64,000 nucleotides of DNA, from contig JBMNIW010000008.1 of assembly GCA_050951325.1 (NCBI GenBank), positions 96,266 to 160,265 on the forward strand, in the 5' to 3' direction. The notes beneath the pieces are model-generated. The model was not told the origin of the DNA and made no database searches. It saw only the letters and a program-made list of their open reading frames with translations. The DNA is from Clostridia bacterium. Its GTDB lineage: Bacteria > Bacillota > Clostridia > UBA1212 > DUPL01. Positions 3,110 through 57,044 of the stretch are shown piece after piece (position 1 is the stretch's first letter; each line of letters begins with the position of its first letter). The position numbers and the translations under genes are program-made.

Positions 3110-4762
3110 ATGAGAAGCGATAATATAACCAAAGGAGTAGAAAAAGCACCTCAACGTGCCCTACTCAAGGCTATGGGTTATACCGACAGCCAACTAAAAA
3201 AACCATATATAGGAATAGTTAATTCTTTCAATGAAACAGTTCCTGGACACATACATCTTCCCCAGATAGCACGTGCAGTTAAGGACGGCGTGCTGTCTGC
3301 GGGAGGCACCCCCTCCGAGTTCAATGTTATTGCGGTATGTGATGGCCTTGCCATGGGACACGAAGGTATGAAATATTCCCTTTGCTCAAGGGAACTGATT
3401 GCAGACAGCATCGAATGCATGGTAAATGCCCACTGCTACGATGCACTGGTCTTCATTCCAAACTGTGACAAGATAGTCCCCGGCATGATGATGGCAGCCG
3501 CAAGACTCAACATTCCCTCAATCTTCGTATCAGGAGGACCAATGCTTTCACTGGATGGCTATGACCTTAACAGCTCGTTCGAGGCAGTGGGTGCGTATAT
3601 GAACAAATCAATTACTGAACAGGAACTCATAGATATTGAGAACAAGAGCTGTCCCGGATGCGGATCCTGCTCCGGAATGTTTACAGCAAACTCAATGAAC
3701 TGCCTGTCAGAGGCATTGGGAATGGCTCTCTCAGGTAATGGAACAATTCCTGCAGTTTATTCAGAAAGATTGAGACTTGCAAAGAAAGCCGGAGAACAGA
3801 TTATGGAGATGTTTGAAAAAGATATAAAGCCAAGAGACATCCTCACAAAGGACGCCTTACACAACGCACTAAGGCTGGATATGGCTTTAGGATGTTCGAC
3901 AAACTCCGTGCTTCACCTGCTTGCAATAGCAAACGAAGCTGGAGTTGAACTAAATCTCAACATGATAAACGAAATAAGCGCATCAACTCCAAATCTGTGC
4001 AAACTGGCACCGGCAGGTCCTCACCACATGCAGGATTTATACAATGCAGGCGGCGTATACAGAGTGCTGACAGAACTGAGAAAAGCCAATCTGTTAAAAG
4101 AAAACGCTCTTACCGTTACAGGAAAGACAATGGGTGAAAATCTGGACAATGAAGTATATAGAGTATCTGACAACACAGTCATAAGACCTATTGACAATCC
4201 CCACTCCAAAACGGGCGGCATTGCAGTTCTCTTTGGCAATCTTGCACCTAATGGTGCGGTGGTAAAAAGAAGTGCCGTAGCAGAAGAAATGCTAACCCAC
4301 AGAGGAAAAGCAAAAGTGTTTGACAGTGAGGAAGAAGCAATCCAGGCAATATTTGCAGGCCAGATCAACAAGGGCGATGTCGTTGTAATTAGATATGAAG
4401 GCCCTGCAGGCGGTCCCGGTATGAGGGAAATGCTCTCCCCTACTTCAGCAATCGCAGGAATGGGGCTTGACAAGGATGTTGCTTTGATTACTGACGGACG
4501 CTTCTCCGGTGCAACAAGAGGTGCGGCGATAGGACATATCTCTCCAGAAGCAGCCAGCGGAGGACCTATTGCATATGTAAAAGAAGGCGACACAATCGTT
4601 ATTGACATACCCAATTACAGACTTGATTTGGATGTAAGTGAAGAAGAAATGGAAAAACGCAAAAAAGAGATGCAAGTTAAGAAGAAGACTGATTTGACAG
4701 GATATCTGGCAAGGTATGCAAGAAGCGTGTCATCTGCCGACAAAGGAGCAATAGTAACATAA
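3110..4762 (+). CDS. ilvD: dihydroxy-acid dehydratase
   Basis: 550 aa; ILVD/EDD family motifs ([45 protein letters not shown]). Confidence 0.95.
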
Positions 4763-13112: not shown

Positions 13113-14201
13113 ATGCGTTGTCCAAATTGTGGCAAAAAGTTAGATAAAAAAGTTGATATTAAGAAGTGCAGCTATTGCGGCACAAAAATGAAGTGGAAAG
13201 AACCTTGGGATTTAACAACCATAATACTCTTATGTATTACCATTGTCCTGTTTGTCGTATTTCTTTATGTTGTATACGACAGATTCCTTGAAGATAAAAT
13301 AAAGGACAAATATGACAAGGACCCAATTGTAAAGACTACACCTTCATATAGCGATGACAATTTCGATACAGGAAACACCATGGGCAATCTGCAAAACGGA
13401 GGACTTGTTGCAGAAACCGATGACTATGTATATTATCTTGCAATAAACAAGAAGAAAAACATGACATTCATGAGAAGATCCAAAACAGACGAAACAGATG
13501 TGAAGAAAATAGCTGAAGGTAATATTAGATACATCAGCGTTATGAAGGATGCTATATACTTCACTGACAAAGAAAATCACTTAAGCACGATTGCACTGTC
13601 AGGCAGCAAAAAAGACCTTGTTCAGAAAGTGGCTATTGAAACCACATACAATTATACATTGGCAGTTGGTGACTGGATATACTATTGTGACGAACAATTC
13701 AAACTACATAGAATCCGTCCAAACGGCAGCAAGAACACAGCCCTCTCCGAAGGCAAGTTCAAGAGAATCCAGGCAGCCGAAGATATGATCTATGGCCTAA
13801 ATGAGAGCGGTAACATTGTATACATCAAAGGCAATGGTGATAACGAAACAGTCACGGATGTAAAAGCCAACGAGTTTGTAGTATATAACAAGGATTGGAT
13901 ATACTTTCTTGATGACGATGCCATTTACATGGCCAGCACTGAAGACTTCAGCACAGAAAAAGTAAAAGAGATAAAAGCATCCTGCCTAAACATCTTTGAA
14001 GACAAAATCTACTACTTTGACAAGGATGCAGGAAAAGTCTTCTCCATGGATATCGATGGAGAGAATGTGGAAGAGATTGTGGAATTCAATACCAGTGCAA
14101 TATTTGTAACAAAGAGTTCCCTCTTCCTAAAGAGTGCGGAGGATGATCTCATCTACGAATACAAGTTCGGAGAAGATGATGAACCTAAACTTGTGGCATA
14201 A
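13113..14201 (+). CDS. membrane-anchored repeat protein: N-terminal zinc ribbon (CPNCG…CSYCG), one TM, extracellular DUF5050-like beta-propeller repeats
   Basis: Repeated D(W/Y)(I/V)YY… blocks (DYVYYLAINKK, DWIYYCDEQFKLHRIRPNGS, DWIYFLDDDAIYMA, DKIYYFDKDAGKVF) recalling DUF5050/YWTD-like repeats. Confidence 0.5.
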   Translation: MRCPNCGKKLDKKVDIKKCSYCGTKMKWKEPWDLTTIILLCITIVLFVVFLYVVYDRFLEDKIKDKYDKDPIVKTTPSYSDDNFDTGNTMGNLQNGGLVAETDDYVYYLAINKKKNMTFMRRSKTDETDVKKIAEGNIRYISVMKDAIYFTDKENHLSTIALSGSKKDLVQKVAIETTYNYTLAVGDWIYYCDEQFKLHRIRPNGSKNTALSEGKFKRIQAAEDMIYGLNESGNIVYIKGNGDNETVTDVKANEFVVYNKDWIYFLDDDAIYMASTEDFSTEKVKEIKASCLNIFEDKIYYFDKDAGKVFSMDIDGENVEEIVEFNTSAIFVTKSSLFLKSAEDDLIYEYKFGEDDEPKLVA

Positions 14202-15645: not shown

Positions 15646-16908
15646 TCATTCCATTCCAACAATCCTTATATTGAGGGTTCCTATTGCAGTATCAATCTCG
15701 TCTACCAAAACAATCCACTTGTCACTTACATACATAAGATTATTGTCAACTGATACTCCTTCAATCAAAAAGAAATCCATTGTTGTTAAATCCACCATGA
15801 ACAAGCCTCTCCAGCCGTTCAGATCAAAAACAAATACTTTGTCCGAGCAAAAGGCAGGCTCCCCTTTATAGGATTCCAGTTCGGACATTCGAACAGAATA
15901 TGCATAACCCAGTATACTCAAGTCCATTTTTGATAATGCTTTGTACGTATGACTTGCAAAATACAATGTATTGTCATATATCCCAATACCACTAAAACTG
16001 TTAAGACTTACATCTATATTCTGCTGTTTTTTTGTATCCATGTTGTATACCTTAATGGAAGTCTTGTTCACATTCAGGAATACCAGGTAGTTTTCACTCA
16101 TGTAAAAAGGTTCAGGAATATATGGTATACCTACATTCAAGGAACCGTGAACCGGTATCTCATAAACCATGGATTTATCACCTGTTATCATGTTTATCAG
16201 GTAATAGCGGATATAGGATATTGAGCCTGCTAATGCTTCTGCATATACAACGCAGTCTTCTGTAACCATGTATACATCAATCAGATTATCCATATCAATC
16301 GGCAGTATTTTTTCATTATCCCAGAAATAGGAGTTGCAGTAGTACCTGTCCCCTGACTTGTATACAACGTGTTTCTTCCCTGTTTTTAGATTTTCCACAC
16401 CCGATGATATCCTTGTCAAGCTGCCTGACTTTTTGTCAACATTGTACAGACTGTATAACATGCTTGATTCATCATGCACAGATAAATAAATATCGTCACT
16501 TGCTATTACGAAATCCAACTGCTTTTTGCTTGCTATCTTTTCAGACAGCTGTAGCTTTATGCTGCTGGTCCTGGCATTCAATATTTTGTAAGGTACCGGA
16601 GTTGGGCTTGATGTAGGCTCAGGAGTAAAGGTGGGACTCATGTATGTTGCGGTTGCATATACTGTAGTTACAGGTTCCTCGGTAGGTGTATTGATCAGCA
16701 CAGGATCTTTGTTGTAGTCATTTGCTACATAGTTTAGTAGGATCACTGCAGCCACCAGCAGCCAGCAGGCAGCTGCAATCGTTCCTAAAATTTCAGCACC
16801 TTTAACCTTTTTCAAAGATTTTCTGGACTCAAGCTTCTTTACTCTTTCAATAAGCTGATTGTCCGCCTTTATTTTTCTTATCGTATCCTTTATATCCTTT
16901 CCAGTCAT
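15646..16908 (-). CDS. membrane-anchored DUF5050-like repeat protein (cytoplasmic N-term ~45 aa, 1 TM, Thr/Pro linker, extracellular repeat domain); third gene of ECF sigma operon
   Basis: TM AILGTIAAACWLLVAAVILL, linker TPTEEPVTTVYATATYMSPTFTPEPTSSPTP, repeats DIYLSVHDESSMLYSLYN / DVYMVTEDCVVYAE / NTLYFASHTYKAL / NLMYVSDKWIVLVD similar in style to 13113-14201 protein; 4-nt overlap with upstream gene. Confidence 0.5.
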   Translation of the reverse strand: MTGKDIKDTIRKIKADNQLIERVKKLESRKSLKKVKGAEILGTIAAACWLLVAAVILLNYVANDYNKDPVLINTPTEEPVTTVYATATYMSPTFTPEPTSSPTPVPYKILNARTSSIKLQLSEKIASKKQLDFVIASDDIYLSVHDESSMLYSLYNVDKKSGSLTRISSGVENLKTGKKHVVYKSGDRYYCNSYFWDNEKILPIDMDNLIDVYMVTEDCVVYAEALAGSISYIRYYLINMITGDKSMVYEIPVHGSLNVGIPYIPEPFYMSENYLVFLNVNKTSIKVYNMDTKKQQNIDVSLNSFSGIGIYDNTLYFASHTYKALSKMDLSILGYAYSVRMSELESYKGEPAFCSDKVFVFDLNGWRGLFMVDLTTMDFFLIEGVSVDNNLMYVSDKWIVLVDEIDTAIGTLNIRIVGME

Positions 16909-18161
16909 GTTTCAGCCCATCTCCTTTTCCTTCTATACAAGGTTAGCGACAACAGGACTAAAGGAACCATAATAACAAAATATGTGTTATCGTTTGTTTG
17001 TGGGTTTTCAAGGAAAGGATTTCTTCCTCCAAACAGGTAATCGTAGTAGTCGCCGCCACTTAATCTCCACCCGTCTTCAGTTTTTACGAACTCTGCCACA
17101 AGATGCACTTTCTCAATATTCTCATACATTGGGTCATGATGGTATTCCAGCACTATCTCTGCCTGTGCCTTTTCCGCATCATTGGATATTATTCGACACA
17201 TTTCCGGGTAAAACTTCAAAGGAATATACTGAGCTCCGATATAGAGGAGGTATACTCTGTCACCTTCTCTAATAAAGCCCTTGTTATTCTCTTTTCCAAG
17301 CACTTCATTTATTTTGTCTTCTGTAAACACCCTTTTCGCCAGGTTTACCCAGTCATCATAGAATTGAAAACCCCTGCAGGGAACTTTTACAAACCCAAAT
17401 TCGCTTTTTATGTCTGCATCTTCACTGCCCAAGCCAGACAAATTGAACAAAAACTCGTTATATGCTCCATTTTGCAAAAAGAAAGACAACTGATACGCAT
17501 TTTGAGCAAGGATCCTAACTTCATCCAGTGTTATTTCATCACCATTTTCTTTGGGCATCACTCCAAAATACTTTGGAACATAATTTACATCGCATACCCT
17601 CACACCTTCTTCAGTCTTCCTAATATATACACCTATATGCCTTACATATATCTCTATATCATTAAAACCATGATCGTAGTAAAGATAAGGAACAATAACG
17701 TACGCTTCTCCATCCTTGTTGTATTCCACTCTAATATTCTCCATCAGCTTTTCGGGCAGAGAATACACATCCTGCTCATCACTTTTACGGTAGTACACCT
17801 CATCTCCCTGAACAACAATCTTTTTATATTTCTCCAATTCCTTGTCAATCAAATTTTGCATTTCTTCGGTATAAAAAGACCTCATCTTTTCTTCAAGTTG
17901 CTCAAGGCTTTTGTAATCCCCTATTCCGGGATAGTATTTATCAGCACCAGAGGTAACAGGTGATGCATTTTCATCAATAATGTTGTCAGTATAAAGGAAA
18001 GTATTAGAAAAAAACTCAAATGACTCTACGATAAGGCTTTCCATTTCGCTTTCACTAATTGCATTGTCATTGGAATAAACACAAACACCAAACACAGTTG
18101 CAATCACACATATCAAGATAAAAATCCTTTTCAATTCACTCACCTCATATGTTTTCCTCAT
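16905..18161 (-). CDS. secreted cell-wall-anchored protein with sortase-B-type sorting signal NPQTN
   Basis: N-terminal signal peptide; C-terminus …ENPQTNDN-TYFVIMVPLVLLSLTLY-RRKRRWAET (motif + hydrophobic span + basic tail); overlaps ECF sigma gene by 17 nt. Confidence 0.55.
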   Translation of the reverse strand: MRKTYEVSELKRIFILICVIATVFGVCVYSNDNAISESEMESLIVESFEFFSNTFLYTDNIIDENASPVTSGADKYYPGIGDYKSLEQLEEKMRSFYTEEMQNLIDKELEKYKKIVVQGDEVYYRKSDEQDVYSLPEKLMENIRVEYNKDGEAYVIVPYLYYDHGFNDIEIYVRHIGVYIRKTEEGVRVCDVNYVPKYFGVMPKENGDEITLDEVRILAQNAYQLSFFLQNGAYNEFLFNLSGLGSEDADIKSEFGFVKVPCRGFQFYDDWVNLAKRVFTEDKINEVLGKENNKGFIREGDRVYLLYIGAQYIPLKFYPEMCRIISNDAEKAQAEIVLEYHHDPMYENIEKVHLVAEFVKTEDGWRLSGGDYYDYLFGGRNPFLENPQTNDNTYFVIMVPLVLLSLTLYRRKRRWAET

Positions 18162-18681
18162 AGACTTTCAGCATCTCTCTTGCTCTTTGCAATCTCTTCT
18201 TTACCGCAGAAGAAGAAATATTCAGTATCTTGGCTATTTCATCCACCTTGTACTCTTCCACGTAATAAAGTAGAATGACGGCTTTGTACTTTTCTGGGAG
18301 TTTGGAAACTGCATCAAATATGGAAAAGTCCTTGTATGTAAAGTCGTATACTCCCAAATCCTCCATACTGACATATTCATGTCTTTTCCTGGCTCTTAGT
18401 TTGTTTTTGCATACGTTGATGCAAACACGAAGAAGCCATGCCTTTTCGTGTTCCTCATCATTGAATTTGGGCTTTTTGTAAAGGTATCTCATAAATGTAT
18501 CCTGCACCGAATCTTCGGCATCCTGCTTGTTGCGCAACATGGACAAGGATAACCTGTAGAGCATATCTCCATATTTTTCGACAGGAATCAATAACTTCCA
18601 ACTCCCTTCAACATATACACACATGAAGCAAGCATTTGGTGACACAATTTTGATTATATTACCAAAAAAACACAATATCAA
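18145..18681 (-). CDS. ECF-type RNA polymerase sigma-70 family factor
   Basis: Region 2 (DAEDSVQDTFMRYL…AWLLRVCINVCKNKLRARKR) and region 4 HTH (VEEYKVDEIAKILNISSSAVKKRLQRAR); true start probably internal (ATG 18621 or TTG 18591 with GAAGGGAG RBS). Confidence 0.8.
   Translation of the reverse strand: MILCFFGNIIKIVSPNACFMCVYVEGSWKLLIPVEKYGDMLYRLSLSMLRNKQDAEDSVQDTFMRYLYKKPKFNDEEHEKAWLLRVCINVCKNKLRARKRHEYVSMEDLGVYDFTYKDFSIFDAVSKLPEKYKAVILLYYVEEYKVDEIAKILNISSSAVKKRLQRAREMLKVYEENI
18653..18681 (-). promoter_or_regulatory. candidate sigma-A-type promoter of ECF sigma operon (TTGATA-17-TATAAT)
   Basis: Reverse complement reads TTGATAttgtgtttttttggtaaTATAAT upstream of the sigma gene. Confidence 0.4.
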
Positions 18682-41646: not shown

Positions 41647-42138
41647 ATGAAAAAAGCATTTTTCTTCATCGTATTAACAATACTAACACTAAGTATGGTT
41701 GCGGTATACGCAAGCAATATTCAGATTACATTGGACAAACAGGAATATGTTGTTGGGGAAACTGTAACAATTACCTACTCAGATGCTGATGGCGATGCCG
41801 AGGCATGGTTTGCCATATACCCACAAGGAGAAGAGCCTTACCAGTCATATCCGGGAACGGAAAAAGTATGGGCTTACGCAAACAGTAATTCTGAACAAGC
41901 TGGTTCAGAACCTGTTACAGAAGGAACTGTAACCCTGAGCACTGAAGGACTTGCTCCAGGCGAATACAGATGCTCATACTTTGTTGACATTGGTTACAAT
42001 GTTGGTGCTACCGTCACTCTAAAGATAGTTGAGGAAAGCACAAACCCGGAAACATCGGACGCCATTGCGTACATACCTTTTATGATTGGAGCAATCTTGT
42101 CACTCATGGTCTTGAAGCGTAAAGCTGTAAACATATAA
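41647..42138 (+). CDS. small secreted protein with C-terminal sortase-type sorting signal (NPETSD + TM + KRK)
   Basis: Signal peptide MKKAFFFIVLTILTLSMVAVYA; C-term NPETSDAIAYIPFMIGAILSLMVLKRKAVNI. Confidence 0.45.
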   Translation: MKKAFFFIVLTILTLSMVAVYASNIQITLDKQEYVVGETVTITYSDADGDAEAWFAIYPQGEEPYQSYPGTEKVWAYANSNSEQAGSEPVTEGTVTLSTEGLAPGEYRCSYFVDIGYNVGATVTLKIVEESTNPETSDAIAYIPFMIGAILSLMVLKRKAVNI

Positions 42139-47639: not shown

Positions 47640-48614
47640 CTATAATATCATGCTTAAAATCTCTTCTCTTGAAAGTGTTGAAATCAAGGAAATTGGCACA
47701 TCGATTATGGTATGGCAGCCAATACTTCCTTGTTGTGACAATTTATAAGCAGCTCTTGCATATGCAACCAGAATAGCAGAGGTGAATTCTGGGTTTGACT
47801 CAAGTTTAATGGAAAACTCAATAATATGTTGATTATCTTCCGAAGTCTTGCCACTGGTTATGACAAAACCACCATGAGGAAGCTTTGCATGGTTTTCCAG
47901 AAGCTCTTCTTTGGAAACATACTCTACAAAGGTATCGTAATCAGCAAAATATCCAGGCATGTTTACAATTTCTTTTTTGATTTTCTCCTTGTCAGCTTCT
48001 TCCTTTACCACCACATAACAATGCCTTTCATGCATTTCCCTTTTTGTAAAGTCGGGAGTTTCTCCGTTTCTTACACGATTAACAACATCTTCTACAGGAA
48101 TAGTATATTGTCTTGCATCCAAAACACCATCTACTCTTCTAACTGCATCAGAATGACCCTGACTCACTCCAGGTCCGTAAAATGTATACCCTTTTCCGTT
48201 AGGCAGAATACTCAAACCGAGCAGTCTGTTTAAAGAGAAAATACCCGGGTCCCATCCAACAGAAATTATTGAAACTGTATTGTTTTCCTTTGCTACCTTG
48301 TCCACATTATTAAAATGTTCAGGTATTTTAGAATGATTGTCATAGCTGTCGACTGTATTGAAATATTTAGTGAAATATGGAGTTTGCTCAGGCAGGTCCG
48401 TGGCACTACCTCCACAGAGCACCATAACATCTATCATGTCTTTATACTCAATAACATCGTCAGGATGCAAAACCCTGACGTTTGACATAGTCTTGATATT
48501 TTTTCTTCTTGAAACGATGCAAACCAGCTCCATATCAGGACTGTTTAAAACATGCATCTCACTTGCCTTTCCCAAATTTCCGTATCCTACTATTCCTACT
48601 CTGATTTTACTCAT
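47640..48614 (-). CDS. ddh: meso-diaminopimelate D-dehydrogenase
   Basis: 324 aa; near-collinear with Corynebacterium Ddh (RVGIVGYGNLG…CGGSATD…VGWDPGIFS…GPGVSQGHSDA…HGGFVIT). Confidence 0.85.
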   Translation of the reverse strand: MSKIRVGIVGYGNLGKASEMHVLNSPDMELVCIVSRRKNIKTMSNVRVLHPDDVIEYKDMIDVMVLCGGSATDLPEQTPYFTKYFNTVDSYDNHSKIPEHFNNVDKVAKENNTVSIISVGWDPGIFSLNRLLGLSILPNGKGYTFYGPGVSQGHSDAVRRVDGVLDARQYTIPVEDVVNRVRNGETPDFTKREMHERHCYVVVKEEADKEKIKKEIVNMPGYFADYDTFVEYVSKEELLENHAKLPHGGFVITSGKTSEDNQHIIEFSIKLESNPEFTSAILVAYARAAYKLSQQGSIGCHTIIDVPISLISTLSREEILSMIL

Positions 48615-48667
48615 ATTTTTCCTCCAATATTAGACTACTGACTAATTATAGCATAAAAACTCAAATC

Positions 48668-49285
48668 TTACTTGCTTTTTCTATCGGTTTTGTCAATATA
48701 TATTCCAAAGATAAAAGCAGCTATTGCAAAACCAAAAAACCAACCACCAAGAACATCAAAGGCATAATGTACTCCCAGATATATTCTGGTTATACCTATA
48801 GAGATAAACATTATTACACATAAAGCAGAAATAGTCACCTTCAAATATTTATTCTTCAAGTGCCTGTAAGCCAAGAAAGCAAACATTGTGTAAAGTGTCG
48901 CACTTACCATTGAATGTCCGCTAGGAAAACTATATCCAGTTTCATTAACAAGCCTCAGTACATCCGGTCTTTCCCTCATAAAAACAACTTTTAGCAAGTT
49001 ATTGATGACGGTGGATGCAATAACTGCAGATATAACAGGAAGTGCTATTGTTTTCCTGGAAGCAGGAATAATAATCAAAGCCAGACATATCAGAACAACA
49101 GATATCGTGTCACCTCTTCTGGTTATGAAAGTTGCCACTTTGTTCATCGCAGGCGACATGTGCCTTGACACAATTTCATATGCCCAATTCTCAAAAGTCT
49201 CATTCAATCCCGCCAGCAGAAGTATCGTTACTATAGCAAACATTGTTAAAGGAATGACCCAAATCAATATTTTCTTCTTATTCAT
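48668..49285 (-). CDS. PAP2-family membrane phosphatase (undecaprenyl-PP/phosphatidate phosphatase-like)
   Basis: KxxxxxxRP, PSGHS and SRxxxxxHxxxD-type blocks (FPSGHSMVSAT…GVHYAFD). Confidence 0.75.
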   Translation of the reverse strand: MNKKKILIWVIPLTMFAIVTILLLAGLNETFENWAYEIVSRHMSPAMNKVATFITRRGDTISVVLICLALIIIPASRKTIALPVISAVIASTVINNLLKVVFMRERPDVLRLVNETGYSFPSGHSMVSATLYTMFAFLAYRHLKNKYLKVTISALCVIMFISIGITRIYLGVHYAFDVLGGWFFGFAIAAFIFGIYIDKTDRKSK

Positions 49286-50154
49286 GCCTTCTCCTTTTCA
49301 ATATGTAATTTCAAGTATTCCTTGAGTTTTGGCATGGCTTCCCTTGCCACATCCATACCCTGATTGTACAAACTATTTATAACATCAAGGTTCCGTTCAG
49401 TTCGTTTACAACCACTGACATCTTTAGGACCAATAACAAAAACCCTTCCTTCTTCTTCAAGTTCCCAGACTCTTTTCAATTTTTCGTTATACACCCTGGT
49501 GCGGTCTAGTAGAGCTTTTGAAAACTCTGGGTACTTTCTATAAAGCTTTGCACAAAGTTTAAGCGCCTTTTCCTCTTCCTTTACATATCCTTTTTCTCTA
49601 GTAAGCACAACGATCACCTTGTCGCAATCATTTCTTAAAGCCTCATCCACCGCAATAGGATCACATATGCCTCCATCCATATACTTCATTCCATCAATCT
49701 CAATTAAAGGAAACATAATAGGAAGAGCACAACTTGCCACCAAATGCACAAAACTTTTATCATCCCGGGGCATCTTCAAATATTCCGCCTGGCCAGTTTT
49801 CACATTGGTTACAACACTTACCACATCACCTTCAAATTTTTCAAACTCTTTAAAATCAAAAGGTATGTGCTTGTTGGGTATTTCCTCGTATACAAATTTG
49901 ATGTTGTAATAGCTTTTGTTATTGGGATTTACAAGATGCTTGAAACCCATGTATCTTTTATCGTTTAAAAACCTTGTAGCTATTTCAAGATTTCTTCCCT
50001 TTTGTCTTGACACGTATGACACACCATTAGCTATGCCCGCAGAGGTGCCTATTACATAATCTGCATATGTACCTTCTTCAAGAAAACAATCAAGAACGCC
50101 GCATGTAAAATACGTTCTACTGCCTCCACCTTCCAGAACAAGTCCCAGTTTCAT
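49282..50154 (-). CDS. patatin-like phospholipase
   Basis: GGGSRTYF oxyanion loop, GTSAG (GxSxG) nucleophile elbow. Confidence 0.8.
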   Translation of the reverse strand: MKLGLVLEGGGSRTYFTCGVLDCFLEEGTYADYVIGTSAGIANGVSYVSRQKGRNLEIATRFLNDKRYMGFKHLVNPNNKSYYNIKFVYEEIPNKHIPFDFKEFEKFEGDVVSVVTNVKTGQAEYLKMPRDDKSFVHLVASCALPIMFPLIEIDGMKYMDGGICDPIAVDEALRNDCDKVIVVLTREKGYVKEEEKALKLCAKLYRKYPEFSKALLDRTRVYNEKLKRVWELEEEGRVFVIGPKDVSGCKRTERNLDVINSLYNQGMDVAREAMPKLKEYLKLHIEKEKA

Positions 50155-50379
50155 AAAAACCCCCTTTTCTTAATTCATCAAATATTTTATTCCTTAACTC
50201 AATTCTTGTCAAAATAAAGAACTGCCTTCACTTTGGAAGACAGTCTGCTAATGTAAAGGGTGTTTTATATGTGTGTAGCTATATAATTACACTTGTCGGT
50301 TGGATGTCAGACTCGCTAGGAGGTTTTGTCAGTGTTAGCAAAGACATTTAGTTATATAGCTACAGTTGTTCTCAAGTTT

Positions 50380-50415
50380 GTAATTTTAAAGGGCTGCAAT
50401 TGTCCATTACAGCCC
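50380..50415 (-). terminator. intrinsic terminator of cassette copy 1
   Basis: GGGCTGCAAT-tgtcc-ATTACAGCCC then U-rich on minus strand. Confidence 0.5.
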
Positions 50416-50432
50416 TTGATGGCTTTTATTAA

Positions 50433-51329
50433 CTAGAATGAGTATACTTTGCGTTTTACAACAACCGCGCATGCCATAGCAGCGAGGATTGCAACCATAA
50501 CTATTGCACTATCACCTGTTGGTGGGTTTTCTGTACCTGGCTCTTCTGTTTCTGGCTCAGGTTCTGTCAATGCAGCGTTCAAGTTGTTAAGATGTGTTCC
50601 AAGATCTTCTTCGGATGTGTTCAAGATGAAAGCCTTGAGGTCATCGCCTACTGCATTCATAACAGCATCACATTTAGCCTGGTCATAAATGGTTACATCT
50701 TCAGCTTTGGCTTCGTAATACTTGTTTACGAAGTTCAATGCATTTTGTCCAGCACCCTGAAGCACGTTGATCCACATTCTGTAACCAGCACCCAGGTTGG
50801 AAGATTCGCCTGCTGCGGCTTTTTCTTCGTTGTACTCAGCAAAAGTCTTGTCATACAGGTGAGCTTCGATATTTCTTCCTTCAATAACTTCCGTGTATGG
50901 AACCAAACGAGGCTCTACTCCAGCTTCTATTTTGCATGTGACAAAATATGTACCTGCTGGATATACATTGTCAAACTCAAATACAACATTGGGGCTCCAG
51001 TCAGTTGATGTAAATTCTTTCTGCTCCAGAAGCTCCTTGTCTTCACGGCTAGTATTCCATTTGTAGAGGCTCATTTTGAATTGATGTCCTGCAATTACGG
51101 TTTGAACCTGTACACCTACGAAAAGTTCGCCTTCCAATATATCAAACTTCATACCAGCGTAGTTGCCCCATCCCATATGCAAATAAGTTGAACCATTAAA
51201 ACCTGGTGCAACATCACCTTTAACCAGTTCAATGGCTTTTTCTTCTACAGCTGCGTTTGAGAACACAGTCATCATTGACATTAACAGTGTTAATACTACA
51301 ATGAATATCAAGCCTTTTTTCATTTTCAT
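50433..51329 (-). CDS. secreted wall-anchored protein A1 (sortase-type signal NPPTGDS + TM + KRK)
   Basis: Signal peptide, ~260-aa domain, C-term NPPTGDSAIVMVAILAAMACAVVVKRKVYSF; paralog of 52370-53245. Confidence 0.45.
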   Translation of the reverse strand: MKMKKGLIFIVVLTLLMSMMTVFSNAAVEEKAIELVKGDVAPGFNGSTYLHMGWGNYAGMKFDILEGELFVGVQVQTVIAGHQFKMSLYKWNTSREDKELLEQKEFTSTDWSPNVVFEFDNVYPAGTYFVTCKIEAGVEPRLVPYTEVIEGRNIEAHLYDKTFAEYNEEKAAAGESSNLGAGYRMWINVLQGAGQNALNFVNKYYEAKAEDVTIYDQAKCDAVMNAVGDDLKAFILNTSEEDLGTHLNNLNAALTEPEPETEEPGTENPPTGDSAIVMVAILAAMACAVVVKRKVYSF

Positions 51330-51504
51330 AATACTACCTCCTGTATTTTACTTAAAAGCTAATGATTGTTTCATCACTTTCGTTGGATAACTACATATAT
51401 ATTCTATCTTAGTAGAATTCAAATACAATTGCTTATTTACAGTTCTAAATTGATTGTTTTACAGATTATACACAAATTAAATACTGGAATAAATTTTTTG
51501 GCAC

Positions 51505-51537
51505 AAAAAACAGCCAATGTCGACATGACACTGGCTG
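51505..51537 (-). terminator. intrinsic terminator (copy 1 of duplicated terminator)
   Basis: CAGCCAATGTC-gacat-GACACTGGCTG with U-run on minus strand; near-identical element at 54550-54583. Confidence 0.6.
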
Positions 51538-51557
51538 AACAAATTGCTTTCTAGTTT

Positions 51558-52247
51558 TTATCTTCTATTGGGTGGCTGATAGTTCTCAGCATCCTCCATT
51601 GTTTTAAAGAAGCCCATAAAATCGATTGTTATAGTAGAGTCTATTGGAGGATTCCATAAAATGTCCGCTCGGAATTCGGTTATAGTTTGCTTGTCAGGCT
51701 TTAATTCTGAAAAATCGAGATATACTTCCTGCCAATCCTCACCTGAGTCAACATTAAATTTAACATGCTGTCCAGCTCCGGTTATAGCTTCTCCGTCACA
51801 TGCAACGTAGAACTCACCATCAGAAATCCCAGCCGTATGCTTGAATATCATCTTGAATATTGGATACTCATGTATATCCAATGCACCGTCCGGCATGGGT
51901 AAGTTGAAAATAGGATCGTGAAAATCAACAACAGTCAGATGCAGGCCTTCTTCAGTAAACTCAGCTTCTGCATATGTTGGATTAATATCGTTCCCTTCAA
52001 ACATAGTATCAATTATATTCTCACCTTCAAGAGCAAAACGATACAATACAGCATCCACACCCTCATCCGGATCCGGAGTTGGTTCTGGTGTTGGAGTTGG
52101 TGTTGCTGTTGGTTCAGGTGTATCCGTCGGTGCAGGTGTATCTGTTGGCTCTGGAGTCTTGTCCGTACCACCGCCACCTTTACATCCTATGAAAGATACA
52201 ACCATCAAAGCAATAAGTAGCAGTAACAACAGTTTCTTGATTTTCAT
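51558..52247 (-). CDS. lipoprotein B1 with Pro/Thr-rich linker (TPEPTDTPAPTDTPEPTATPTPTPEPTPDPDEG) and ~170-aa C-terminal domain
   Basis: Lipobox SFIGC; paralog of 54599-55276. Confidence 0.45.
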   Translation of the reverse strand: MKIKKLLLLLLIALMVVSFIGCKGGGGTDKTPEPTDTPAPTDTPEPTATPTPTPEPTPDPDEGVDAVLYRFALEGENIIDTMFEGNDINPTYAEAEFTEEGLHLTVVDFHDPIFNLPMPDGALDIHEYPIFKMIFKHTAGISDGEFYVACDGEAITGAGQHVKFNVDSGEDWQEVYLDFSELKPDKQTITEFRADILWNPPIDSTITIDFMGFFKTMEDAENYQPPNRR

Positions 52248-52369
52248 GTTTATTCCTCCAAATTAAAATAATTTGTAATATTATAAATAATTGTAAAACT
52301 TAGTCAAGTTTGTTTGCAATTTATACAAAAAATATTAGCTGCCTCTTCATGGCAGCTAATATTTTTTCA

Positions 52370-53245
52370 TCATTTCTTTGCAATTCTAACCATCTTCTTG
52401 TTCAGCAAGACAGCTGTTAATACAACAAGCAAGATTAAATACAAGCAGCCTGTATCGCCCGTAGGTGGGTTCACGTCATCCTGCAAAGCAGCGGTAAGAT
52501 TGTCAAGCTGAGTCTTAATTTCTGCATTGGATGCATTCAAAAGAAAAGTCTTCAAATCATCTCCTACCGCATTCATCACCGCATCATATTTGGCCTGGTC
52601 GCTTACTGTTACTCCTTCAGCCTTTGCCTCGTGATACTTCTTTACAAAAGCCTGAGCATCCGCTGTAGCTCCAGTAAGAAGTTTGATTGACATATCAAAA
52701 CCTTCACCAAAATCCTTGCCGCTTGTAGCACTCATATCGTCAAAAGTCTGGTCATACTGATACGCTTTTATATTCCTTCCTTCAACAACCTTTTTGTAAA
52801 CATACAAATAAAGTTCAGTACCGTTATCCGCAAATGTTTCTATTTCAAGGTAGTACTTACCGGCAGGATATACGGTATCAAAATCATATACGACCTGCTG
52901 CCAGTCCAATGACGTAAGCGTCTTTGACTCGAGCAGTTCCTTATTGTCAGTACTTCCATTCCATCTATACAAATTTGCCTTGATGGGCTTTCCTGCAACA
53001 ATAGTCCTAAAAGTCACACCACAAAGCAATTCATCATTATTAACTTCAAAAGTCATACCTGGATAGTTGGCCCAGAGAAGTACAAGAAGTCCTCCGCCGG
53101 TATGGCCTTCAGCCACCGCATCACCTTCGACAACCACCAGGCGCACTGTATCTTCCTGCATTTGTGCATTGACTCCCAGCAACATAAAAGACATCAGAAT
53201 TGACAATGCAACAATAAATATAGTTAATCTATGCCCTAGTTTCAT
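52370..53245 (-). CDS. secreted wall-anchored protein A2 (NPPTGDT + TM + KK)
   Basis: Signal peptide; domain collinear with A1 (…LYRWNGS…VYPAGKYYLEIE…DQAKYDAVMNAVGDDLKTF…). Confidence 0.45.
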   Translation of the reverse strand: MKLGHRLTIFIVALSILMSFMLLGVNAQMQEDTVRLVVVEGDAVAEGHTGGGLLVLLWANYPGMTFEVNNDELLCGVTFRTIVAGKPIKANLYRWNGSTDNKELLESKTLTSLDWQQVVYDFDTVYPAGKYYLEIETFADNGTELYLYVYKKVVEGRNIKAYQYDQTFDDMSATSGKDFGEGFDMSIKLLTGATADAQAFVKKYHEAKAEGVTVSDQAKYDAVMNAVGDDLKTFLLNASNAEIKTQLDNLTAALQDDVNPPTGDTGCLYLILLVVLTAVLLNKKMVRIAKK

Positions 53246-53325
53246 TACATACCTCCATAATTTTATTACAGTATTATTATCTCAACAATTACGTTATAAA
53301 TAATGGAAGTATATTGAATTATCAG

Positions 53326-53898
53326 TCAATTAGTCATATCATATAAAATTGGAATGCTTTTTTCATTAACAAGATACGTGTAAAATCTGTCATCAAACCA
53401 GAGTGGTGCCGTATCCTTGCTGAAAATCAGCGGCATTCTGTTATGTATAAAGGCAATATTTTCAGCCCGATCCCGGGTAATCATGGTTACCTCATCCTTT
53501 TCCATTCTTTTAAATCCAGCTATGAACAATATGCCCTCTTCACTGAACAATCTGTACTTTTCAGATCTTTTGTCAGGCAGTTTTCTCCACTCATAGTAGG
53601 ATTTCGCTGGAATGAGACACCTATCCCCTTTTATATGTGGCGCAAAGAATCTGCTGGTTAAAACAGTTTCGCTTCTTGCATTGAATATGACCTTTTTTTC
53701 GTCATCCCACTTTTGAAATCCCCACTGCATCAGCTTCAAATGCTTCTCCTTCGTAATAACCGGTATTTTGGAAGAAGGATAAGCATCCCTTCCCAGAACA
53801 GTCATATCCTCCTTCGATAATAGAACAGACACGTCCTGTATTATCTCTCTTATCTCCTCTATTTCGTCCTCCGTAAATATTGTGAATCTTCCACACAT
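53326..53898 (-). CDS. SOS-response-associated peptidase (SRAP/YedK/HMCES family), abasic-site DNA-protein crosslinking
   Basis: Starts MCGRF (Cys2 nucleophile), 190 aa. Confidence 0.8.
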   Translation of the reverse strand: MCGRFTIFTEDEIEEIREIIQDVSVLLSKEDMTVLGRDAYPSSKIPVITKEKHLKLMQWGFQKWDDEKKVIFNARSETVLTSRFFAPHIKGDRCLIPAKSYYEWRKLPDKRSEKYRLFSEEGILFIAGFKRMEKDEVTMITRDRAENIAFIHNRMPLIFSKDTAPLWFDDRFYTYLVNEKSIPILYDMTN

Positions 53899-53901
53899 AC
53901 C

Positions 53902-54525
53902 CTACACTCCTGACATTTTTAAAAAGTTTTTCATATTCGTTTTCTCAGCTTCCAAATCTGAACCTTTTCTTCCAAGTCTATCACAAAAACCCAACAAAGC
54001 AACATCAAAAACATCCACATCCCTTTTCATACCCTCCATATCTTTGAAGGGTAGATCCTTGAGAACATAGAGAATATGCATATGGTATTTTACCAACAAG
54101 GCCACATTGCCAATAAAGGCAAGGTCGTCCGTAAAACATGACAAAAACTCTTTTGCCAGCCTTTCACCTGCCACATCGTGGCCATAGGCGGTTATTCTTC
54201 CCTTTCTTACCTTTGTTGTCACCGCCTTGCCAACATCATGCAAAAGAGACGCCCACATGAATACTCTTTCATCCGAGCTTCTATCCCTAACTTTTGCAGC
54301 TTCATCAACAACCATCATTGTATGGTTCCACACATTGCCTTCTGCATGATATTTTGGGGACTGCCCAACTTCCTTAAGTCTCTTAATCAAAACAAAAGGG
54401 TGTTTGGAAAACTCTTCCTCAAAACAAATCTCATTAAGATATATTGAAGGCTTTTCATCAGTCAATAGATGTTCCTCAATAGACAAATATAACTTAAACA
54501 CGTTCCACCTTTTTTCTGATATCAT
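53902..54525 (-). CDS. HD-domain phosphohydrolase
   Basis: H…HD motif (…WNHTMMVV…ASLLHDVGK…), 207 aa; 4-nt gap to SRAP gene. Confidence 0.7.
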   Translation of the reverse strand: MISEKRWNVFKLYLSIEEHLLTDEKPSIYLNEICFEEEFSKHPFVLIKRLKEVGQSPKYHAEGNVWNHTMMVVDEAAKVRDRSSDERVFMWASLLHDVGKAVTTKVRKGRITAYGHDVAGERLAKEFLSCFTDDLAFIGNVALLVKYHMHILYVLKDLPFKDMEGMKRDVDVFDVALLGFCDRLGRKGSDLEAEKTNMKNFLKMSGV

Positions 54526-54549
54526 TTCTCACAAGCCTTAAAAATATGC

Positions 54550-54583
54550 AAAAAATCAGCCAATGTCATTAGGACACTGGCCG
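54550..54583 (-). terminator. intrinsic terminator (copy 2)
   Basis: CAGCCAATGTC-attag-GACACTGGCCG with U-run on minus strand. Confidence 0.55.
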
Positions 54584-54598
54584 ATAGAAAAGTTAATA

Positions 54599-55276
54599 TT
54601 ATCTTCTGTTTGGCGGTATGTAGTTTTCAGCATCTTCCATTGTCTTGAAAAACCCAAAGAAGTCAATAACTATCTCTGAATCAACAGGAGGATTGCCCAA
54701 GATATCAGCACGGAACGTAGTAATGGTCTGTGCTTCTGGCTTTTTCTCAGACCAGTCAATATATATCTCTTGCCAGTCTTCGCCTTTATCTACTGTGTAT
54801 GTGTAGTTCTGCTGAACGCCTGTTATGGCTTCACCATCAAACCCTACATAGAACTCACCCGTGGTGACTCCAGCATTATGCTTGAGCAACATTTTGAATA
54901 TTGGATACTCAGTAATATCTATCGCTCCATCGGGCAATGGTATAGTGAAGTATGGGTCGCTTTGGTTAAGAACAATTATTGTCAACCCTTCATCCGTGTA
55001 ATCAAGATCCGCATTCATGACACCTTGCACCATTCCATACCTGAAAAACGCCTCTTCACCTTCAAGAGCAAAACGATAGAGGATCGCATCAAGACCTTCA
55101 TCCGGATCCGGCGTTGGTTCCGGGGTCGGAGTTGGTGTGGGTGTGGGTTCTGGCGTATCCGTTGGGACTGGAGTTGCAGTAGGTTCGGGAGTCTCCTCCT
55201 CTCCTCCCTTGCATCCGATGAAAGATACTACCATAAGGCAAACTAGAAGCAAAAGCGAAAATTTCCTAACTCTCAT
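54599..55276 (-). CDS. lipoprotein B2 (paralog of B1)
   Basis: MRVRKFSLLLLVCLMVVSFIGC lipobox, same TPEPT linker and C-terminal domain (…FFGFFKTMEDAENYIPPNRR); ATG 55276 with GGAGGA RBS. Confidence 0.45.
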   Translation of the reverse strand: MRVRKFSLLLLVCLMVVSFIGCKGGEEETPEPTATPVPTDTPEPTPTPTPTPEPTPDPDEGLDAILYRFALEGEEAFFRYGMVQGVMNADLDYTDEGLTIIVLNQSDPYFTIPLPDGAIDITEYPIFKMLLKHNAGVTTGEFYVGFDGEAITGVQQNYTYTVDKGEDWQEIYIDWSEKKPEAQTITTFRADILGNPPVDSEIVIDFFGFFKTMEDAENYIPPNRR

Positions 55277-55486
55277 ATTCTTTCCTCCAATCATTATTAT
55301 CTTAACAGTATTTTAAAATATTAGCAAAATATAGTCAATACTTTTGTTGTTCGAAACATAAAATAGACTTATATTATTAATAATAAATACATTAATAACA
55401 TGTATAATATAATTTGGTGGTCTGTTGACCATTTTTCATATAAATGCTAAGATTAAATGTCATGAAATTTTGTTTGGGAGGGTAAC

Positions 55487-55840
55487 ATGGCGGAACATTT
55501 ACAGTTTTCAGTGATTGGATTTGTGATAGTAATTCTCATAATGGCTGCAATATCATTAATCTTGATGTTGATACCCATAATATTTGGTAAATCAAATAAA
55601 AAGGTTAAAGAGAAAAAAGTAAAGATAGAGAAAGCAAAGGTCGATGAAGTAAAAATACAGGAAACAACACCTGTACAAACATCATTGGTCGAAGATGACA
55701 ATTCAGAATTGATAGCAGTAATAACTGCTGCAATAAGCGCATTTGCTTCAAAAGATCATAAAACCCTTAGGGTTGTATCTTTCAGAAGAGTTGGAGACAA
55801 TTCGCCTGCATGGAGCATGGCTTCCAGAGTAAACAACTGA
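55487..55840 (+). CDS. oadG: Na+-translocating decarboxylase gamma subunit (OadG family)
   Basis: 117 aa; single N-terminal TM, Lys-rich linker, Ala-rich C-terminus typical of OadG. Confidence 0.6.
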   Translation: MAEHLQFSVIGFVIVILIMAAISLILMLIPIIFGKSNKKVKEKKVKIEKAKVDEVKIQETTPVQTSLVEDDNSELIAVITAAISAFASKDHKTLRVVSFRRVGDNSPAWSMASRVNN

Positions 55841-55853
55841 TTTTTGGAGGTAT

Positions 55854-57044
55854 TTGATGAGATTTTTTGAGATTATAATTGGAATATTTGAAGAGTCGGG
55901 TTTTGCTAACATTATTGACAACTTCGTGTGGGATGGAGCAAAAACACTCACTATGATAATTCTTGCCTTTGTACTCATATACCTGGCAATCGCAAAGGAA
56001 TTCGAACCTCTATTGCTTCTTCCAATAGCCTTTGGAATGCTGATAGCAAACCTTCCTCTTGCAAATCTTGCAAGCAAGTATACGCAAGAGGCTCTGGAAC
56101 AGCTTGAAGCAACAGGAGGAGCAAAAGGCTTAATATATTACCTGTACCAAGGTGTCGAACTGGGTATTTATCCACCCCTTATCTTCCTTGGCATAGGTGC
56201 AATGACTGACTTTGGCCCGCTTCTTTCAAACCCCAAGTCGCTGCTGATGGGAGCAGGAGCACAACTGGGTATTTTCCTCACATTTTTTGGAGCATGCGCA
56301 ATTCCCTTTTTCTCACCCCAGGACGCAGGCGCAATAGCAATAATTGGCGGAGCGGATGGTCCGACTGCTATCTATACTGCCAGCATACTCTCGCCTGACT
56401 TATTACCCGCAATTGCAATTGCAGCATACTCATACATGGCATTGGTGCCTGTTATTCAACCACCCATTATGAAAGCCCTGACAACCAAAGAGGAAAGAAT
56501 GGTTGTTATGAAGCAGTCAAGAGAAGTTTCAAAGAGAGAGAAGATAATTTTCCCAATTCTCGTAACTGTTCTTGTATCACTGCTTCTGCCTTCAGCTGCA
56601 ACCCTTGTGGGAATGCTTATGTTTGGCAACCTCGTTAAAGAAAGCGGCGTTGCAGACAGACTTGCAAAAGCCATGTCCAACGAGCTTATGAATATAGTTA
56701 CAATTATGCTTGGCATATCCGTTGGCGCAACTGCCACTGCTGACAGATTTTTAAATCCACAAACTTTGGGAATTCTGGGTCTTGGTATTCTAGCTTTCTC
56801 ATGTGGAACAGCTGGTGGAGTTCTAATTGGAAAGCTGATGTATAAAGCAACTGGCGGAAAAGTAAATCCACTTATTGGTGCTGCTGGAGTATCCGCAGTT
56901 CCAATGGCAGCAAGAGTCGCACATGACGTTGGAAGAAAAGAAAATCCCGACAACTATCTGCTAATGCATGCTATGGGACCAAACGTAGCAGGCGTTATAG
57001 GTTCCACAATAGCTGCAGGTTTACTGATAAATGTTTTAGGCTAA
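55854..57044 (+). CDS. oadB: Na+-translocating decarboxylase beta subunit (OadB/MmdB/GcdB family)
   Basis: 396 aa polytopic membrane protein, collinear with decarboxylase beta subunits. Confidence 0.85.
   Translation: MMRFFEIIIGIFEESGFANIIDNFVWDGAKTLTMIILAFVLIYLAIAKEFEPLLLLPIAFGMLIANLPLANLASKYTQEALEQLEATGGAKGLIYYLYQGVELGIYPPLIFLGIGAMTDFGPLLSNPKSLLMGAGAQLGIFLTFFGACAIPFFSPQDAGAIAIIGGADGPTAIYTASILSPDLLPAIAIAAYSYMALVPVIQPPIMKALTTKEERMVVMKQSREVSKREKIIFPILVTVLVSLLLPSAATLVGMLMFGNLVKESGVADRLAKAMSNELMNIVTIMLGISVGATATADRFLNPQTLGILGLGILAFSCGTAGGVLIGKLMYKATGGKVNPLIGAAGVSAVPMAARVAHDVGRKENPDNYLLMHAMGPNVAGVIGSTIAAGLLINVLG

Follow-up and report, generated by a model that had tools for sequence, protein, structure and literature searches.

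How did a Clostridia bacterium come to carry, side by side, two copies of a gene pair that encodes a lipoprotein and a secreted protein with a wall-sorting signal, and are the two proteins partners? The window that we analyzed is 64,000 nt of contig JBMNIW010000008.1 (GCA_050951325.1), and its source setting is anaerobic digesters. Six genes of the window, all on the minus strand, form the locus, in the transcription order B2, HD, SRAP, A2, B1, A1. B2 (54599..55276) and B1 (51558..52247) encode paralogous lipoproteins, and A2 (52370..53245) and A1 (50433..51329) encode paralogous NPPTG-bearing proteins. A sequence-only reading of this DNA had proposed a tandem duplication of an A-B cassette with an SRAP/HD gene pair inserted, and it had compared the layout to surface capture or relay systems such as Isd. 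The open reading frames (ORFs) that it named were all found where it had placed them, on the minus strand. We conclude that this is probably a lineage-specific surface-protein gene cluster that arose by an old duplication and in which copy 1 (B1 and A1) is a hot spot of allelic replacement.

Allelic replacement is seen most sharply at A1. The A1 variable cassette (50350..51430, minus strand) comprises the gene with flanks of about 100 nt on the upstream side and about 80 nt on the downstream side. Its DNA is 79 to 85% identical to that of contigs that otherwise match the window at 99.7 to 99.9% identity over 7.6 to 17 kb. We counted differences within 50350-51430, a comparison span of about 1.08 to 1.10 kb, and outside it. 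Contig L007 has 161 differences within the cassette and 28 in the 15,818 columns outside. The corresponding numbers are 207 and 33 (14,076 columns) for L002, 207 and 14 (11,675 columns) for L003, and 233 and 17 (6,527 columns) for L019. A2 is 99.7 to 100% conserved in close strains, and close relatives have the same six-gene order.

The A1 alleles are 76 to 88% identical in protein sequence. Because the synonymous divergence (dS) between allele types is 0.65 to 1.0 and the ratio of nonsynonymous to synonymous divergence (dN/dS) is 0.1 to 0.2, we interpret the alleles as old functional variants imported by recombination, not as recent mutations. Recombination has also left marks inside the gene. 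Between L007 and L002, the proportion of synonymous differences is 0 at residues 1 to 194 and 0.41 to 0.45 at residues 195 to 298, with an intragenic breakpoint near residue 195. L007 and L019 have the A1 tail in common and not the head. At least three head types and at least three tail types occur. Two other sources of the variation were rejected. A diversity-generating retroelement does not fit differences that are spread over the whole gene and are mostly synonymous. Gene conversion from A2 does not fit either, since every A1 allele is about 42 to 47% identical to A2.

B1, the other gene of copy 1, also has an alternative allele, which corresponds to window positions 51412-52300 and is found in L018, L020, and L021. 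It is 81% identical to B1 in protein and 72 to 82% in DNA. In all three assemblies it is split by a frameshift in the repeat that encodes the Pro/Thr linker; a pseudogene, phase variation, or an assembly error that recurs could each account for this. The alternative B1 sits next to a window-type A1, and in these three independent assemblies the breakpoint lies at about 51412-51462, in the spacer between B1 and A1. In L021 (GCA_029550225.1, JAKPHP010000075.1), a 3.2-kb block matches window positions 48264-51462 at 100% identity and takes in A1, patatin, PAP2, and the first part of DAPDH; the background around the block is about 85% identical (range, 76 to 91%). This block suggests a recent transfer between lineages. 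L022 is a further mosaic contig.

The tandem duplication itself stood up to analysis. Both gene pairs are paralogous, and the copies share gene order and orientation. A1 and A2 are 47% identical over 283 aa (E value, 6e-79), and B1 and B2 are 65% identical over 230 aa (E value, 1e-80), which is far beyond chance in both cases. At the DNA level, blastn aligned the B units with about 66% identity over about 800 nt (55338-54549 against 52307/52334-51505), that is, from the -35 box through the terminator. Similarity between the A genes is limited to about 170 to 212 nt with about 69% identity in blastn, and this stretch encodes the most conserved helical segment. The B-A intergenic stretches past the terminator are dissimilar between the two copies. 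By its DNA, the duplication is evidently old. In a neighbor-joining tree, B1 and B2 are sisters, as are B3 and B4 of a second locus described below. Because of these sister pairs, a single duplication of a B+A cassette is possible. To judge from B3-B4, B clearly also duplicates by itself.

Because the homology between the copies spans the -35/-10 promoter to the terminator, each B gene is predicted to be a self-contained transcription unit. The promoter-like site of B2 (55310..55338, minus strand) has TTGACT, a 17-nt spacer, and TAAAAT (10 of 12 matches), and it forms the 5' edge of the duplicated B unit. The site of B1 (52280..52307, minus strand) has TTGACT, a 16-nt spacer, and TATAAT (11 of 12 matches). 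An intrinsic-terminator-like hairpin with a T-run follows each gene on the minus strand, at 54555..54585 after B2 (13 pairs, 6 GC) and at 51511..51537 after B1 (11 pairs, 6 GC). These hairpins had been described as near-identical. They are 82% alike when 51505-51538 is compared with 54551-54584, and both score as intrinsic terminators. Read along the direction of transcription, each one falls between a B gene and the next downstream gene. Because every B gene has its own predicted promoter and terminator, A and B are not obviously cotranscribed. A palindromic hairpin of 17 pairs with A/T runs on both sides follows A2 (52327..52367, assigned to neither strand) and resembles a bidirectional terminator. 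An Rfam scan of 49900-55900 found no element. Just upstream of B2 (55300-55400), contigs that are otherwise identical differ (68 to 98% identity).

We next describe the proteins, beginning with A. That the A proteins are secreted and end in NPPTGD and a transmembrane segment can be read directly in the translations. By eye, the A1 N terminus is a putative Sec signal peptide, MKMKKGLIFIVVLTLLMSMMTVFSNA, followed by AVEE, and A2 has a similar segment. At both C termini, NPPTG is followed by D, then by 17 to 19 hydrophobic residues, and then by KRK or KK. The tail is NPPTG-DSAIVMVAILAAMACAVVV-KRKVYSF in A1 and NPPTG-DTGCLYLILLVVLTAVLL-NKKMVRIAKK in A2. The motif lies 27 to 33 residues before the C terminus, and N-P-x-T-G is invariant across A family members. 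NPxTG is a recognized alternative anchor motif (bioRxiv 10.1101/2020.12.07.414375). The organism seems to use NPxT-type signals, because two further ORFs of the window end in NPQTN-D or NPETS-D followed by a transmembrane segment and a basic tail. We infer that a sortase whose gene lies elsewhere in the genome attaches A covalently to peptidoglycan.

An A protein has three regions: a β-sandwich head, a strongly conserved four-helix region, and the sorting signal of NPPTG, transmembrane segment, and KRK. Confident AlphaFold2 models predict a generic sandwich of the PHR, lectin, or carbohydrate-binding module (CBM) type, plus helices. Foldseek searches of the PDB with A gave weak matches only (TM scores, 0.2 to 0.5), and the lectin-like domain of Cwp84, a surface-layer-associated protein, was among the best of them. 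The helical region EAKAE.V...DQAKYDAVMNAVGDDLK.F is nearly invariant among A1, A2, and the distant member P0075.

The B proteins have a signal peptide, a lipobox cysteine, a Pro/Thr linker, and a CBM-like jelly-roll domain of about 170 aa. As the sequence-only reading had it, they are lipoproteins with TPEPT linkers; the lipobox cysteine (...VVSFIGC, then KGG, in B1 and B2) and the linkers are legible in the translations. The cysteine is kept after a hydrophobic h-region in 18 of the 19 B relatives with the N terminus present; the N terminus of the relative P0009 differs. Full-length relatives carry a Pro/Thr-rich linker. The B2 start at 55276 is backed by a GGAGG ribosome-binding site, and 55294 merely marks the longest ORF. 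In L007 (3896-4732), the gene call for B2 gives a product of 278 aa that is extended at the N terminus. A confident AlphaFold2 model predicts a CBM-type β-sandwich or jelly roll for the domain. Searches with Pfam, NCBIfam, and PDB-sequence profiles assigned B to no described CBM family. To our knowledge, its C terminus, FRxD...DxxGFFxTxExAxxY plus PPNRR, matches no feature of a CBM family.

The impression that neither A nor B belongs to a recognizable family was borne out. Scans with Pfam, NCBIfam, PADLOC, and PHROGs gave low-complexity linker or sub-threshold matches only, and profile searches of PDB sequences gave 0 matches for A and B alike. A profile comparison of A with B gave a probability of 0.1%, which leaves no detectable relationship between the two sandwiches.

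Both families are rare. Among 5.8 billion proteins, A accounts for 8 clusters; an exhaustive HMMER search of 1.84 billion representatives with its profile returned 9 matches. The only new full-length member from that search was P0075, alongside some fragments. The upstream neighbor of P0075 is an unrelated, divergently transcribed gene. A JGI metagenome scan for A found 2 loci, and a scan of viral contigs for A found none. The 1,369-aa protein P0080 was rejected as an A homolog, as its weak multirepeat match was judged to be motif-level similarity ("AGTYYV") and not homology. It has at least 11 tandem repeats of about 100 aa, and eight of them weakly match A residues 78 to 129 near "AGTYY." In the 329-aa protein P0064, an unrelated N-terminal half precedes the C-terminal two thirds of an A1 allele; a chimera that arose in assembly or gene calling is the probable explanation. 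For B, an initial search was dominated by the Pro/Thr linkers; rerun with a trimmed alignment profile, it gave about 20 clusters. With a narrower alignment, one GTDB species representative was found to carry B, the Clostridiaceae metagenome-assembled genome (MAG) AS15tlH2ME_177. Biogas and digester metagenomes are the source of the related contigs.

B genes also occur apart from A. In other taxa, distant B-like lipoproteins (24 to 30% identity) stand alone, either beside genes for GH3, GH4, and UDP-glucose dehydrogenase, as for the remote homolog P0067, or beside an integrase gene and secG. A second locus carries B3 and B4 in tandem (71% identical to each other), with no A (L006 5314-6742; L017 5512-6754). 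L006 was considered as a case of B without A in another species, and this was rejected. It is instead the second locus of the same species, because it is 99.8% identical to a contig of the same MAG that carries A2-B1-A1. The B3-B4 locus adjoins radical-SAM genes and a divergently transcribed gene for a 500-aa zinc-ribbon protein. In the window, 13113-14201 (plus strand) encodes a zinc-ribbon plus DUF5050 protein of the same general type (zinc ribbon, long repeat-like region), a likeness by description only. From the predicted fold, and with the GH3 and GH4 neighbors of P0067 as the one hint from gene context, we suggest that B probably binds a glycan, either a polysaccharide substrate or a polymer of the cell envelope.

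Are A and B then the two tiers of a relay? In that scheme, wall-anchored A would pass a ligand to lipid-anchored B, and the A+B cassette would have been duplicated as a functional unit. The alternation of B then A is common to both copies, the B tree is compatible with one cassette duplication (B1/B2 being sisters relative to B3/B4), the anchoring depths of A and B truly differ, and the near-invariant helical region of A1, A2, and P0075 could be an interaction surface. However, a NEAT-like fold, for which A and B were checked, was found in neither, as B is CBM-like and A is a PHR/lectin/CBM-like sandwich plus helices. The genes on one side of the locus encode oxaloacetate decarboxylase (OAD gamma/beta), and those on the other side are patatin, PAP2, DAPDH, DeoC, PfkB, and SASA; there is no transporter of the ABC type or any other, no sortase B, and no ligand-processing enzyme among them. 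Predicted terminators part B from A, and B paralogs and homologs occur without A (B3-B4 and single B-like genes), which fits one of the conditions under which the sequence-only reading was to be given up. The two proteins also show no sign of covariation, because A1 alleles that diverge by 12 to 24% in protein lie beside a B1 whose domain is 96 to 100% identical, and the divergent B1 allele lies beside a nearly unchanged A1 (98.7% of amino acids). The profile comparison of A with B likewise found nothing. The Isd-like capture or relay idea is therefore not supported, because there is no NEAT fold, there are no partner genes, there is no evident cotranscription, and B is independent of A. We regard a two-tier relay as very unlikely. 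The likeness to the Isd systems of Staphylococcus and Bacillus is in the general layout only, with wall- and lipid-anchored proteins side by side and an NPxT-type motif. Isd comprises NEAT-domain wall proteins, a lipoprotein, an ABC transporter, and SrtB, whereas the A/B locus is without NEAT fold, transporter, heme oxygenase, or sortase, and B is a jelly roll and not a class III solute-binding protein.

Several results weigh against our own reading of a duplicated surface-protein cluster with a replacement hot spot. The sorting-signal model NF033846 (Rumino_NPXTG) gave A1 15.9 bits, under its cutoff of 23.5, and did not match A2; no sortase TLxTC-type motif was found in the ORFs of at least 80 aa in the 64-kb window. 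A and B are adjacent in every lineage that has A on a long-enough contig, and a functional link between them is possible. The low dN/dS of A1 gives no direct sign of positive selection on residues. The comparison sequences are metagenome assemblies throughout (contigs or MAGs), and L021 represents a lineage with about 85% identity to the window, so the allelic variation of A1 and B1 might be a product of assembly, with chimeras of two co-occurring related species. Identical junctions recur across samples and assemblers, which argues against such chimeras. Eight contigs, drawn from several runs, have the L002 type, three have the L007 type, and the junction of alternative B1 with A1 is present in JGI, ENA, and NCBI assemblies. 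Regions that are 80% identical share few long k-mers and would be hard for an assembler to bridge, and the A1 ORFs are intact and show codon-level purifying selection. We consider an assembly artifact extremely unlikely. A different rival keeps the variation and changes its meaning. A and B could be structural or envelope-maintenance proteins that serve the cell's own wall polysaccharide, an S-layer, a spore, or a sheath, and the swapping would be a neutral by-product of recombination among coresident lineages. The Cwp84 match, a dN/dS that shows purifying selection only, the housekeeping genes around the locus, and mosaicism that reaches past A1 in some contigs (the L021 block and L022) are in line with this explanation. 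In contrast, the lineage-1 divergence is confined to A1 (161 to 233 differences in about 1.1 kb, versus 14 to 33 in 6.5 to 15.8 kb), neutral import is unlikely to strike one gene in several independent allele types, and the remote B homolog lies in a sugar-utilization neighborhood. We think this explanation unlikely. We also give a low probability to a stronger version of our own proposal. It holds that B1-A1 is a dedicated variable surface cassette, that A and B together form an exposed receptor layer, that phage-driven, frequency-dependent selection shuffles alleles between strains and sister species, that the invariant helical domain of A docks onto a conserved partner (B or a wall polymer), and that copy 2 keeps the basal function.

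The scenario that we prefer is an old duplication, real but unremarkable, of surface-protein genes from two orphan families whose fold types are known. B1 and B2 would be anchored by lipid to the membrane, with the long Pro/Thr linker holding the jelly-roll domain away from it, and the domain may bind a glycan (either a substrate polysaccharide or an envelope polymer). A1 and A2 would be secreted and then anchored to the wall by sortase; in these proteins the sandwich head varies, and the helical region is nearly invariant. The A and B genes would be expressed independently, as separate units, and no mechanistic link between A and B is shown. HD-SRAP, which lies within copy 2, would be a pair of cytoplasmic genes unrelated to A and B. 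In copy 1, whole or partial genes would be swapped with related lineages by homologous recombination, a pattern that may be expected where frequency-dependent pressure, such as that from phage, acts on exposed surface proteins.

The identities given earlier to the two embedded genes proved correct. SRAP (53326..53898, minus strand) encodes an SOS-response-associated peptidase that matches PF02586 (3e-31; 109.1 bits against a threshold of 27.1) and starts with MCGRF, with the N-terminal Cys2. HD (53902..54525, minus strand) encodes a cytoplasmic HD/HDIG phosphohydrolase that matches PF01966 (29.1 bits; cutoff, 22) and TIGR00277 (HDIG, 37.3 bits; cutoff, 27.6). The HD start lies 26 nt past the B2 terminator region (54551-54584), and the SRAP start is 3 nt past the HD stop. 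The 54526-54598 stretch ahead of HD has only a weak promoter-like site, which overlaps the B2 hairpin. The pair may be expressed by read-through from B2 or from an internal promoter. The arrangement extends to the two more divergent lineages whose upstream part was readable. L023 has the full B-HD-SRAP-A2 order, with HD 67%, SRAP 75%, and A2 75% identical, and L021 has the same order, readable from HD onward, at about 85% DNA identity. In L023, a 50-aa ORF (PF28213) lies between B and HD, and a group II intron (3682-3977; RF02001, 133 bits; RF01998, 40 bits; start of a maturase-like ORF) follows the A2 ortholog, at the place expected for B1.

The two further ORFs with NPxT-type tails lie elsewhere in the window. 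The first (16905-18161, minus strand) encodes 418 aa, has no Pfam match, and ends in NPQTND, a transmembrane segment, and RRKRR, a sortase-B-style signal. It overlaps and directly follows a gene for a sigma-70 factor of the extracytoplasmic function type (18145-18681, minus strand), and the ORF next to it (15646-16908) has no family either. The second (41647-42138, plus strand) encodes 163 aa, has no Pfam match, adjoins a GH3 gene, and ends in NPETSD, a transmembrane segment, and KRK. Its tail is a candidate variant sorting signal.

Among known systems, B is closest to stand-alone CBM-like glycan-binding proteins, such as Bacteroides SGBP-B and the Piromyces CBM29 "noncatalytic protein 1," and more broadly it resembles the type B/C carbohydrate-binding modules of families 8, 11, 22, 29, 30, and 86. 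It differs from them in that its sequence resembles no Pfam or PDB entry and in lying outside a polysaccharide-utilization locus, in a Gram-positive host, with a glycan role that is predicted from the model. A shares the signal peptide, NPPTG, hydrophobic span, and basic tail with sortase-anchored NPXTG/NPQTN proteins (NF033846; sortase B substrates). Unlike these surface proteins, it scores under the NF033846 cutoff, has an orphan passenger domain, and has no sortase nearby. Unlike fibrillar adhesins, it is short and without repeated stalk domains. Replacement-type "metagenomic" islands and mosaic surface-antigen genes are thought to be kept by phage or host pressure (PMC3909814, PMC3782348). 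The A1 cassette is like such islands in its presumably exposed product, its divergence between strains that are about 99.8% identical, its sharp edges, and its intragenic mosaicism. It is unlike them in its single-gene size, in being known here from metagenome contigs, and in that phage or host pressure is only a proposed link.

These results provide a fold-level annotation for two orphan families that have so far been labeled "hypothetical protein" in an uncultured digester lineage of Clostridia. They reveal no new type of system, and of most interest in the locus is the hypervariability of A1 and B1 among strains. The A1 island is a sharply bounded, single-gene recombination hot spot that could serve as a strain marker, and in biogas microbiomes it is a candidate locus for a phage receptor or an adhesin.

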